Origin: Escherichia coli
GTDB lineage: Bacteria > Pseudomonadota > Gammaproteobacteria > Enterobacterales > Enterobacteriaceae
Direction: 5' to 3' (one strand)
NCBI RefSeq assembly: GCF_003334335.1
Contig: NZ_QOWQ01000065.1
DNA length: 10,108 bases
Below the pieces are notes generated by a model, which was not told the origin of the DNA, searched no databases, and saw only the letters and a list, made by a program, of their open reading frames with translations. The first letter of the stretch is position 1; the number at the start of each line of letters is the position of its first letter. This document shows positions 1,723-4,429 of the stretch, piece after piece. The position numbers and the translations under genes are program-made.

Positions 1723-1945
1723 CGTAACGGTCTGGATCACCGGAAAGGACCCGCCAACGACTTTCGCGTGCAGGCATTAAAAATTTTGCAGTTCCATGCC
1801 TAGTTGAAACCTCGATTTCTATAACATCCAATTTTGTAAATTTAGATATAGCTCAACTTTTCCCAATGTTTTCAAGTGTATAAAAACAATTGGCGTTACG
1901 CCATAACACTATACTTAGGATAAGTAAAGATTTTAAGGAGTTTTA

Positions 1946-3013
1946 ATGAGTCAACATCAATATTATCCACAGCTGAAATGGAAGCCTGCTGAATATGAAT
2001 CTCTGATGCTTTTAGATCAAACTACGCTCTCTGGTTTTACTCCGATCATTACCATTCCAGACATAGACTGGGATTATGAAAACGAATGCTACAAGAAGAG
2101 TTTGAGTTCTTACTTATCTGACTTCGGTATTAACCTTGCGGCATCCTGGAAAGCCAATCGTCCTGTTTTGCTGGATGTTAAATATTTAGATAAACATGGT
2201 TCGAGCCGCCATCATCCTCTAGATATGTGTATCCAAGATGCTAGAGTAAATGGTAAGGAAATTATCCCTGTTGTTTCTCCCGCATATTCAACAAACTATA
2301 TACATGCTGTTCAACGCAACTTAATCAATGGGCTCGCTATATCTATCCCCCCCCAGACATGGCACCAATTCACAAGTCTGGTTAACCACTTAAATATTCA
2401 TCCTAGTTTAATTGATGTAATCATTGATTTTGGAGATATTCAAAACGCAACTGATAGTTTAAAACAACAAGCATTAAGCATGGTCAACACATTATCAGGC
2501 CAAGCTCCGTGGAGAAACTTGATTTTATCTTCAACCGCATACCCAGCATCACAGGCAGGGATACCGCAACATCAAGTTCATCATATTCCGCGCCATGAAT
2601 ACGATCTTTGGATGTACGTAGTACAGAATTTTAGCAATGGAAGAACGCCAAGTTTTAGTGATTATCCCACCGCTAGCTCTACCATTACGAGCGTAGACCC
2701 ACGCTTCATGTCTCAGTATGTCTCAGTGAGATATTCGAACGATACCTCATGGATCTTTGTAAAAGGTACCGCAGTTAAAGGAAATGGATGGGGCCAAACT
2801 AAAAACTTATGTACTACCCTTGTTAGTTCGCCAGAGTATCAAGTCTTTGGTTCCAAATTTAGTTGGGGGGATGATTACATTTACCAAAGATCATTAGGCG
2901 CTAACAAATCTGGCGGCTCTAAAGAATGGCGTAAAGTTGCACATACGCACCATATTACGTTAGTCGTGAGACAGCTTTATTGGTTGGCGCAGACTCAGCC
3001 TGCCAAGCCTTAA
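1946..3013 (+). CDS. Hypothetical protein, 355 aa, cargo-island gene 1 (function unknown)
   Basis: Longest plus-strand ORF in the window. Strong SD (TAAGGAG at 1934..1940) about 5 nt before the ATG at 1946. Possible -10 TATACT at 1910..1915. Markedly A+T-rich codon usage compared with flanking phage genes. No motif I can assign to a known family. Confidence 0.75.
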   Translation: MSQHQYYPQLKWKPAEYESLMLLDQTTLSGFTPIITIPDIDWDYENECYKKSLSSYLSDFGINLAASWKANRPVLLDVKYLDKHGSSRHHPLDMCIQDARVNGKEIIPVVSPAYSTNYIHAVQRNLINGLAISIPPQTWHQFTSLVNHLNIHPSLIDVIIDFGDIQNATDSLKQQALSMVNTLSGQAPWRNLILSSTAYPASQAGIPQHQVHHIPRHEYDLWMYVVQNFSNGRTPSFSDYPTASSTITSVDPRFMSQYVSVRYSNDTSWIFVKGTAVKGNGWGQTKNLCTTLVSSPEYQVFGSKFSWGDDYIYQRSLGANKSGGSKEWRKVAHTHHITLVVRQLYWLAQTQPAKP

Positions 3014-3575
3014 CTTTCCAGCCTACGCGTTTCTTTAAGGCTGTTCTGACTTCAAGCCTGAGATTCGCTATTGGAATATTTTCCGCAATAATATTCCATA
3101 ACTCAAATCGGGGCTTGCTTTTGATTCCTTTGGAATAGCCCCATCGTTCAAGTACGTCGATACATTCATCTTTCCAAAGCAATTGAGCGAGCATCAATGT
3201 GTCATGGTTTCGATTAAGCTTTTCTCCACGCATGTGCTTTATAAGAATGGCGCCTTTTGGCCCAACAGAAACCGTTTTAACGCCCCACCAACCTGGGATT
3301 AACTTTAATGCTCCCTCAAGATGTTTCTCAGCTACGACAAGAGTAACCTTGTCCATTACAGAAGAATAATGCTTGATTTGAAGAGGCAAACGCTCCAAAG
3401 AGTCATATTCACTTTTGAGCTCGTACCCGTGTATAACACCATTTATTACAGCAATGTCTGCTCTACTGGCGCCAAGGGATATGGAAAATTCATCGACCAC
3501 AAGGCAGTCTGGATCTAAATGCGATTCTTTCAAAAGCTTATGATGCACCGCGAACCTAACATCTTGATCTTTCAT
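2955..3575 (-). CDS. Hypothetical protein, 206 aa, with PD-(D/E)xK-like nuclease motif; cargo-island gene 2
   Basis: Minus ORF with strong SD (AAGGAG, 5-nt spacer) before the ATG at 3575. N-terminal region VVDEFSISLGASRADIAVINGVIHGYELKSEYD has the E ... hD ... hExK spacing typical of the restriction-endonuclease-like (PD-(D/E)xK) fold. A+T-rich. Convergent with, and overlapping by 59 nt, the 355-aa gene. Confidence 0.75.
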   Translation of the reverse strand: MKDQDVRFAVHHKLLKESHLDPDCLVVDEFSISLGASRADIAVINGVIHGYELKSEYDSLERLPLQIKHYSSVMDKVTLVVAEKHLEGALKLIPGWWGVKTVSVGPKGAILIKHMRGEKLNRNHDTLMLAQLLWKDECIDVLERWGYSKGIKSKPRFELWNIIAENIPIANLRLEVRTALKKRVGWKVKAWQAESAPTNKAVSRLT

Positions 3576-3925
3576 GACTTCTCCTTACTCCCTCCGTTAT
3601 TGAATTATAGCGCACTGCATTTTACTGCATTTGAGAGATTTGACCACTTCAATCACAAAATGCTTATCTGCAGCAACAAGATTCATAGCCATACGACTAT
3701 GGTGATTACCTTTTGTCTGGAAAACTGACCATTCCACGAAGATCAGATAGGTCTATAGAATCTTGGTTTGTCATAGCGTTCGCCTTACTTTGAGATGAAC
3801 CTTTGCTGCATAGGAGATCAGCCCGTCAAGGCTCACCAGCACTAACTGACTACTCAAAGGCTCATTCCAAAGGGTTTGGTTCGACGTGGTTGAGTGCACT
3901 GCGGTGCGCGGTGAAATACCTGTAC

Positions 3926-3954
3926 AAAAATGCCCCGCATCTGCGAGGCATTTT
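3926..3954 (-). terminator. Intrinsic terminator-like hairpin downstream of Rz/Rz1
   Basis: AAAAATGCC-CCGCATCTGCGA-GGCATTTT: perfect 8-bp stem with the A-run on the plus side, so the minus-strand RNA has the stem followed by a U-run. Lies 38 nt past the Rz stop at 3992. Confidence 0.5.
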
Positions 3955-3991
3955 CCTGAAAGTCACGTATTAAATTTCAGTGAAATTAAAA

Positions 3992-4429
3992 TTATTTTAA
4001 GCACTGCGTCCTGATGTACTCCTGCAGGTAGTTGACCTGCGCGGTTATCTTGTCGATTCCACTTCGGAGACGGTAATAATTGAGTTCAGCATCTGCTGTA
4101 AGTCTTGGGCTTTCTCCATTGCCCATGCCGCTGGCTCCGGTCGTTGACTTTGCACAGGTAGCGGCGACTTGCAGGCGCTTACGCCCAGCAGAAACATCAG
4201 CACGGAGGCTTTCGATAGTCGCGTTAGCATCAGCAAGCTCCTTTGTATATCTGGCATCGAGTTCTGCTACGTCACGTTGACGCTTCTGCATATCAGCGAT
4301 TGTGGATGTGGCTTTATCGCGCTGCTCTTTGTAGGTTATGGCGTTATCACGGTAATGATTCAGCCCCAGACTAAGCGCACCACAGGCCACCAGCAGGGCA
4401 ATGATGACCACGCACAGTACGCGGTTCAT
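3992..4429 (-). CDS. Rz: Rz, i-spanin (inner-membrane spanin subunit)
   Basis: 145-aa ORF with N-terminal TM segment (VLCVVIIALLVACGALSL) followed by NHYRDNAITYKEQRDK..., periplasmic coiled-coil-like region and C-terminal ...NYLQEYIRTQC. Matches lambda Rz as I recall it (…VNHYRDNAITYKAQRDK…). Confidence 0.9.
   Translation of the reverse strand: MNRVLCVVIIALLVACGALSLGLNHYRDNAITYKEQRDKATSTIADMQKRQRDVAELDARYTKELADANATIESLRADVSAGRKRLQVAATCAKSTTGASGMGNGESPRLTADAELNYYRLRSGIDKITAQVNYLQEYIRTQCLK
4045..4230 (-). CDS. Rz1: Rz1, o-spanin lipoprotein, embedded in +1 frame of Rz
   Basis: ORF wholly inside Rz in another frame. From the ATG at 4230 (preceded by AGGAG with 7-nt spacer): MLTRLSKASVLMFLLGVSAC-KSPLPVQSQRPEPAAW..., i.e. 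signal peptide, lipobox-like VSAC, then a Pro-rich mature part. The track's upstream ATG at 4257 is an alternative start. Confidence 0.8.
   Translation of the reverse strand: MLTRLSKASVLMFLLGVSACKSPLPVQSQRPEPAAWAMEKAQDLQQMLNSIITVSEVESTR

Follow-up and report, generated by a model that had tools for sequence, protein, structure and literature searches.

The closest described relatives of the genes reported here come from phage-defense work. [quoted passage not shown] 2022, PMC9122126); protection has been demonstrated for the three-gene P4 locus only (PMC9122126). A lambda gene from the ral region, orf184, reportedly triggers cell killing via this locus (Silas et al., bioRxiv 10.1101/2023.04.06.535777). 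P4 beta suppresses the killing by gop, and the locus has been termed toxin-antitoxin-like (PMC9122126; bioRxiv 10.1101/2023.04.06.535777). The PD-lambda-2 system is classed with systems derived from toxin-antitoxin modules, and one of its components, described as 'related to a P4 phage antitoxin' (PMC9519451), is needed for defense and not for toxin neutralization (Vassallo et al. 2022, PMC9519451). In addition, NCBIfam has named a pair of neighboring genes, sce7725/sce7726, found e.g. in Leptospira (PMC12457778).

We analyzed a 10,108-nt stretch of Escherichia coli DNA (hereafter the window), in which a preliminary description made from the sequence had noticed two convergent open reading frames of 355 aa (plus strand) and 206 aa (minus strand) between cos and the lysis genes. 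The coordinates and flanks confirm this arrangement, and each gene is indeed preceded by a near-consensus Shine-Dalgarno sequence, AAGGAG, five nucleotides before its ATG. By homology, the island formed by these genes is a gop-less beta-cII cassette, i.e. the two-gene core of P4 gop-beta-cII, and both families already had names; RefSeq labels the pair 'beta family protein' and 'sce7726 family protein'. The features of the locus are as follows.

1600-1760, no strand: context, phage-21-type cos/IHF-site region forming the left boundary (from identity to phage 21 records)
1761-3770, no strand: cargo island, a 2010-bp A+T-rich block between cos and Rz (limits from the ends of flank homology)
1935-1940, plus strand: Shine-Dalgarno sequence AAGGAG of the Beta gene, five nt 5' of the ATG (read from the sequence)
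1946-3013, plus strand: Beta-family protein gene, 355 aa, predicted TIM barrel (open reading frame; PF14350 match)
2955-3575, minus strand: sce7726/Phage_P4_cII family gene, 206 aa, with a predicted N-terminal PD-(D/E)xK nuclease domain and a predicted C-terminal helical domain
2955-3013, no strand: antiparallel coding overlap of both 3' ends, 59 nt, without an intergenic terminator (from stop-codon positions)
3581-3586, minus strand: Shine-Dalgarno sequence AAGGAG of the sce7726 gene, five nt 5' of the ATG (read from the sequence)
3604-3609, minus strand: candidate promoter, a perfect TATAAT -10 hexamer 28 nt upstream of the sce7726 ATG (from conservation)
3614-3632, minus strand: candidate operator, a tandem AAATGCAGT-A-AAATGCAGT repeat directly next to the -10 hexamer (from conservation in the close clade)
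3926-3955, minus strand: context, strong intrinsic terminator immediately following Rz, where the lysis cassette ends ahead of the island (from its fold)

The island is a self-contained two-gene cassette, horizontally acquired and mobile, that occupies the variable cargo slot between cos and Rz in a lambdoid prophage resembling phage 21. On its left lies a phage-21-type cos/Nu1 region (positions 1600-1760 are 94-98% identical to annotated phage 21 cos/IHF-site/terminase records), and on its right Rz (3992-4429) is accompanied by genes encoding lysozyme, holin, a SASA-family esterase, tRNAs, and a DNA methyltransferase. When flank homology was compared across 5426 complete E. coli genomes, similarity to related prophages was lost at about 1760 and came back at about 3771, placing the bounds of the island at about 1761-3770. 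The same flanks in related prophages enclose other cargo: DUF6979; DUF1398 with YlcI/YnfO; PerC; Rha or KilA-N. Across 28 viral contigs and L001, identity within the 2010-bp block does not fall below 99.4%, while the flanks diverge (82-99.9% on the left, or only ~85 nt beside cos, and 95-100% on the right); in one compared prophage the left flank is just 82% identical. Because flank homology breaks at both ends, alternative cargo occupies the same place, and the block is better kept than its flanks, we conclude that the pair is separately acquired cargo in a variable slot, as the preliminary description had supposed. It had also noted the A+T richness of the two genes, which a GC computation bears out: GC content is 0.41 in the island (1761-3900) and 0.516 elsewhere in the window, and the Beta and sce7726 genes show GC values of 0.410 and 0.430 and GC3 values of 0.362 and 0.401, respectively, compared with 0.47-0.55 and 0.47-0.60 in seven flanking phage genes.

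Of the 5426 complete E. coli genomes, 127 (2.3%) carry the block with beta and sce7726, every time on the chromosome. The cassette is thus dispensable for the phage, since it is rare and is replaced by unrelated cargo in similar prophages. This speaks against the explanation that the pair benefits the phage itself, acting in DNA metabolism, repair, recombination, or counter-defense rather than in exclusion. Lysogen-expressed slots beside the repressor in other genera, described below, also argue against such a role, as does the discovery of the P4 and PD-lambda-2 relatives via defense phenotypes (PMC9122126, PMC9519451), and we consider it quite improbable.

A third gene was not found in the island: the other open reading frames of at least 50 aa in 1761-3770 lie inside or antisense to the two genes, or in the 3' part of the spacer upstream of sce7726, and none lies upstream of the Beta gene within the island. 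Two minus-strand open reading frames of 22 and 31 aa in 3600-3775 were considered for this part and rejected, as they are not conserved as reading frames in relatives, a promoter-like block being conserved instead. An Rfam search of the island returned no known RNA.

The preliminary description had found neither protein assignable to a named family. Both are, and we hold these sequence-based assignments, to Beta_protein and to sce7726/Phage_P4_cII, with very high confidence. The 355-aa protein matches Pfam Beta_protein (PF14350) over its full length (residues 6-342 against model positions 1-342 of 342, E 8.7e-56, 190 bits), with further matches to phrog_9159, PADLOC PD-Lambda-2_C (residues 141-344, E 4e-32), and PADLOC 'beta' (5e-10). 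In NCBIfam it matched no family at E values up to 0.1, sce7725 (NF033831) included, and six Beta partners from diverse taxa, two of them myxobacterial, matched none at E values up to 0.01. The 206-aa protein matches NCBIfam sce7726 (NF033832) with 184.1 bits against a cut-off of 70, over model positions 1-182 of 184, and further matches PADLOC 'cll' (4e-31) and phrog_984. It had no match in Pfam-A, in a release apparently without PF26915 (Phage_P4_cII, from a newer Pfam release), and precomputed matches to PF26915 are found on its homologues. Of the families that had been named as candidates, P4 Beta and sce7726 were therefore well chosen, and sce7725 fell away for want of any NCBIfam match.

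An AF2 model of Beta with a pLDDT of 97.1 is a TIM barrel and superposes on Beta proteins of the AFDB with TM values of 0.87-0.94, the PF14350 fold being common to both. Among 131 family sequences, Y6, P33, P200, D239, W328, and H336 are invariant, and the protein of the window deviates at three well-conserved sites, namely Y56 (82% H), S133 (88% R), and Y219 (87% W). Conserved polar residues comprise K11, E16, D77, D157, D161, R216, D239, Y240, R262, Y263, H335, and H336; no position with a conservation of 80% or more across the family is a cysteine. In the predicted model, D77, D157, D161, R216, D239, R262, H335, and H336 are located at or just past strand ends. Conserved polar residues at or after strand ends are the pattern of TIM-barrel enzymes, and because of this placement Beta looks like an enzyme-like protein with a conserved charged (acidic and basic) pocket rather than a simple antitoxin. 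A structure search of AFDB50 with Beta retrieved nothing but further Beta proteins and offered no clue to function, and sequence-profile searches of the Beta and sce7726 families against PDB chains gave nothing meaningful. A likeness of Beta to DpdA and TGT was rejected as non-specific. Literature searches under the family names retrieved unrelated 'beta family protein' papers and otherwise mostly work on amyloid or TGF-beta.

For the 206-aa protein, the preliminary description had pointed to an E...D...ExK arrangement and a PD-(D/E)xK fold, and both hold up. In an alignment of 42 sce7726 sequences, which takes in actinophage and P4 homologues, no variation occurs at E29, D40, E52, K54, or Q66, and conservation at Y70 is 90% or higher. 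The motifs are laid out as E29...D40...E52-x-K54 followed by Q66xxxY70, a QxxxY motif being typical of RecB/Cas4-type nucleases. The predicted structure contains a restriction-endonuclease-like alpha/beta core fold; judged by this modeled fold and the invariant catalytic residues, the protein is a predicted PD-(D/E)xK nuclease, and PD-(D/E)xK nucleases of the MmcB-like, Can2, and NucS types are among its closest known counterparts.

The 59-nt overlap at the 3' ends of the genes encodes the disordered tail of sce7726 (residues 192-206, pLDDT below 50) and is antisense to the C-terminal helix of Beta. RNA structure in 2940-3030 did not exceed that of shuffled sequence on either strand (z of +0.26 and +0.35). 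Because the genes converge, their coding ends overlap, and no terminator lies between them, the Beta and sce7726 transcripts should run into each other, colliding or overlapping, and this convergent overlap would couple the expression of the two genes.

Upstream of sce7726, the TATAAT hexamer is invariant in the window and in its relatives from Klebsiella, Edwardsiella, Pectobacterium, and metagenomes, with diverging surroundings. The adjoining repeat is kept in the close clade as AAATGCAGT or AAATGC(A/T)GT; distant clades lack it and have their own conserved upstream blocks. As a family-wide element the tandem repeat was rejected, being confined to one clade. On the other side of the island, nucleotide similarity to 77%-identical relatives stops just beyond the start of Beta, so the Beta promoter is not conserved. 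A simple promoter/terminator scan performed at or below chance level. The terminator at 3926-3955 forms a stem of 13 bp with a U run after it (-23.8 kcal/mol, z -5.65). The sce7726 gene lies on the strand of the late genes and, given this shared strand and the biology of lambda, antiterminated late transcription would probably read through this terminator and run antisense to Beta.

In order to survey the pair across taxa, we used HMMs from both family alignments and scanned stop-to-stop open reading frames, which makes the 3' ends unambiguous. With one genome per species, Beta and sce7726 are adjacent and convergent in 78 of 80 loci, so that a neighborhood check proposed in the preliminary description supports their co-occurrence. 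In 76 of these 78 convergent loci the coding 3' ends overlap, the length of the overlap ranging from 4 to 110 nt (median 44 nt). One exception lies at a contig edge, where a fragment of the Beta C-terminus is visible; in the other, from Xenorhabdus koppenhoeferi, a kinase fragment and another gene stand in place of Beta. The species-level loci come from Gamma-, Alpha-, Beta-, and Deltaproteobacteria, Firmicutes, Bifidobacterium, Chloroflexi, CPR bacteria, Elusimicrobiota, and the archaeon Methanosuratincola. Among 86 phage/viral entries (85 loci plus the window), a highly redundant set, Beta is immediately convergent to sce7726 in 84, with an overlap in 82 of the 84. Three distant Beta proteins (~28% identity), picked independently, also pair with cII in most contigs. 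A gop gene was found at none of the 80 genome loci, and at P4 alone among the 86 phage/viral loci. This distribution suggests that Beta and cII form a unit conserved across phyla, with Gop confined to P4. In P4 gop-beta-cII, the sole tested relative, Gop and Beta have so far been taken for a toxin-antitoxin pair and cII for a passenger; our survey suggests the reverse.

The genomic settings of the pair are diverse. In prophages of Acinetobacter junii and Pasteurella multocida, a CI-like S24 repressor gene is followed immediately, on the same strand, by Beta, which thus takes the CI-adjacent position that rexAB occupies in lambda. In Gordonia and Mycolicibacterium phages the pair comes after the lysis cassette, in Rac-SA53 it is located upstream of hok/mok and the Q region, and in Burkholderia it is chromosomal, near RHS toxin genes. 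The P4 homologues of the pair sit in the P4 cargo hotspot, and sce7726 was also seen with a conserved partner gene in low-GC accessory regions.

At six independent loci, a disrupted Beta gene stands beside a full-length sce7726 gene that retains every invariant residue. An IS1 insertion is seen at one locus, frameshifts at three, a rearrangement at another, and loss of the N-terminus at the last; these loci were chosen via sce7726, which puts the reverse loss outside the count. The IS1 insertion, in E. coli 1532MA, takes away the first ~52 codons of Beta. The same IS1 is present in E. coli strain 1532WA. As these six loci keep an intact sce7726, the nuclease is tolerated without Beta. The natural disruptions argue against Beta as an indispensable antitoxin or a protective modifier, and they fit a sensor or activator.

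Two further explanations can be judged against these losses. According to the first, the pair is a toxin-antitoxin or addiction module in which the nuclease is a constitutively active toxin and Beta its antitoxin, so that the prophage is stabilized and defense is a by-product. The suppression of gop killing by P4 beta, the toxin-antitoxin-like character of the P4 locus, the origin of PD-lambda-2 among toxin-antitoxin-derived systems, and the relation of its Beta to 'a P4 phage antitoxin' would all agree with such a module. It is difficult to reconcile with six independent Beta disruptions that leave a catalytically complete sce7726, with a 355-aa TIM barrel whose enzyme-like pocket is unlike small labile antitoxins, with convergent genes in place of a co-directional operon, and with the dispensability of PD-lambda-2C for neutralizing its toxin (PMC9519451); we regard it as unlikely. 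According to the second, the genes are a modification-restriction-like pair, in which Beta, in the manner of TIM-barrel transglycosylases, modifies DNA or a nucleotide, and incoming DNA without the modification is cut by the nuclease. The six loci with disrupted Beta and intact sce7726 speak against a protective modifier; we hold this to be the least probable of the alternatives considered here.

The explanation that we favor is a prophage-borne beta-cII cassette with a nuclease effector and a Beta sensor/activator, defending the lysogen. We read the cassette as a defense module because its P4 homologues defend, the nuclease fold and catalytic residues hold, the pair occupies cargo and immunity slots, and losses of Beta are tolerated. 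For an anti-phage role as such, we put the chances at even or slightly better; our confidence in the specific roles of nuclease effector and Beta sensor is lower, and the whole explanation seems to us evenly balanced between right and wrong. According to this explanation, the cassette would protect the lysogen against other phages. The cII-like protein would be the effector, a metal-dependent PD-(D/E)xK DNA nuclease acting through E29, D40, E52-x-K54, and Q66xxxY70, and its helical C-terminal domain may keep the nuclease on DNA. Beta, resembling an enzyme, would act as a sensor or activator and license the nuclease upon infection rather than restrain it as an antitoxin, using a pocket of conserved acidic and basic residues at the C-terminal ends of the TIM-barrel strands, and the convergent, overlapping transcripts may couple the expression of both proteins. 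A more far-reaching version, which we consider rather unlikely as a whole, would make beta-cII an ancient two-gene immune module of bacteria and at least one archaeon. The overlap would then be an antisense-coupled switch, and Beta a TIM-barrel enzyme of a new kind, licensing cII either by sensing infection or by synthesizing or degrading a small molecule; P4 Gop and the HigB/Xre-peptidase proteins of PD-lambda-2 would be lineage-specific add-on effectors.

The strong points of the locus are its pan-prokaryotic, near-invariant convergent-overlap architecture and its TIM-barrel partner. The published three-gene definition of gop-beta-cII reportedly requires gop. Rules built on such a definition would miss the two-gene form, present in 2.3% of complete E. 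coli genomes and in many other taxa. If the pair defends alone, a TIM-barrel-plus-nuclease architecture would be added to the known immune systems, together with a tractable E. coli example offering clear point mutants. If it does not, Gop would be the essential effector.

Among known systems, one comparison is with bor and rexAB of lambda, which occupy moron positions. Like them, the cassette is non-essential cargo with its own expression signals, here in the Rz-cos slot and in other genera adjacent to CI; the likeness is positional only, with no relationship of sequence or fold. The cassette resembles the sce7725/sce7726 pair in that a clear sce7726 member adjoins a conserved partner gene in a low-GC accessory region, but that partner is here a Pfam Beta_protein that matches no NCBIfam model. 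It differs from classical type II toxin-antitoxin systems in its convergent genes, in the 355-aa TIM barrel of Beta, and in the six disrupted Betas beside an intact nuclease. With PD-lambda-2 it shares a Beta-family protein, the third component of that system, whereas the HigB-like component A and the Xre-peptidase toxin B are absent: PADLOC detected only beta, PD-Lambda-2_C, and cll in the island, and no HigB-like or Xre-peptidase component. The PD-lambda-2 paper, for its part, describes no cII/sce7726 partner (PMC9519451).

The closest counterpart is P4 gop-beta-cII (PADLOC gop_beta_cll). The island differs from it in lacking gop, the component reported to be toxic (P4 Gop gave a best tblastn E value of ~5 against the whole window), and in residing in a lambdoid prophage rather than a satellite. 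The cII protein of P4 has 264 aa compared with 206 aa here and, in contrast to the overlapping genes of the island, a gap of 27 bp containing an annotated terminator lies between beta and cII in P4. A P4 paper of 1990 reportedly found that a mutation in the cII terminator impairs beta expression, a point to which our argument gives no weight. Both systems are carried near cos in a cargo hotspot of their mobile element and have convergent beta and cII genes. Their Beta proteins, each of 355 aa, are homologous (22% identity, tblastn E 2.6e-6), and so are the cII proteins (27% identity, tblastn E 2.3e-17).

The Beta gene was found altered or missing in the following comparison loci, in which sce7726 was retained.

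1722-3431 in L178 (E. coli 1532MA, NZ_CM129638.1): Beta gene interrupted by IS1 within its 5' end
5591-6810 in L090 (Xenorhabdus koppenhoeferi): sce7726 without Beta

In L178, a truncated Beta of 303 aa adjoins an intact sce7726, and strain 1532WA also carries an IS1 inside the island. L090 is the sole locus with sce7726 but without Beta although space suffices; downstream of sce7726, and in the same direction, it encodes a protein-kinase-like fragment and a second ORF of 241 aa.

In other phages the nuclease domain was found on its own. Proteins from approximately 241 phage records of Staphylococcus and 33 of Bacillus, with numerous lytic myoviruses among them, matched only this domain of sce7726 (approximately residues 14-145); e.g., Bacillus phage Grass (NC_022771.1, 109956-110381). 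A tblastn search with Beta gave no match in these records.

The DNA around the island contains several further features.

1563-1611: inverted repeat of 22 nt, 82% complementary, with a 5-nt spacer, between cos and the Nu1 start
3926-3955, minus strand: very stable terminator hairpin immediately after Rz (13-bp stem, z -5.65)
3992-4429: Rz gene
4045-4257, minus strand: ORF embedded out of frame within Rz, including LLGVSAC
6045-7898: SASA-family carbohydrate esterase, 617 aa
8121-8330 and 8608-8798, minus strand: two full-length copies of the STnc100 sRNA family (Rfam RF02076; 165 and 136 bits)
8877-9123, minus strand: three prophage-borne tRNA genes (Arg, Arg, and Ile according to the RefSeq annotation of the matching locus)

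Judged from its sequence, the ORF within Rz looks like a candidate Rz1-type spanin gene; its LLGVSAC is similar to a lipoprotein signal. Because TTTT also lies 3' of the hairpin when it is read on the plus strand, this terminator may act bidirectionally. The tRNA genes are flanked by a DNA methyltransferase and the esterase, and both STnc100 copies are placed between the tRNA cluster and the esterase gene.

Other genomic settings of Beta or of the beta-cII pair were as follows.

4814-6675 in L001 (E. coli 14EC047): terminase genes disrupted in an otherwise identical prophage
274-4053 in L166 (metagenomic contig): Beta followed by two co-directional amidohydrolase genes
15054-15407 in L171 (Acinetobacter junii prophage): Acb2/Tad1-hairpin-family protein

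In L001, an IS3-family element splits the terminase small-subunit gene and the large-subunit gene is frameshifted; therefore, the island persists in a defective prophage. The Beta of L166 is identical to one that is paired with cII elsewhere, and on this one contig the two amidohydrolase genes lie downstream instead; the arrangement could be either a genuine alternative context or an assembly chimera. In the L171 prophage, the beta-cII pair is adjacent to the repressor, and the prophage encodes in addition the protein of the Acb2/Tad1-hairpin family, a family known for counter-defence.
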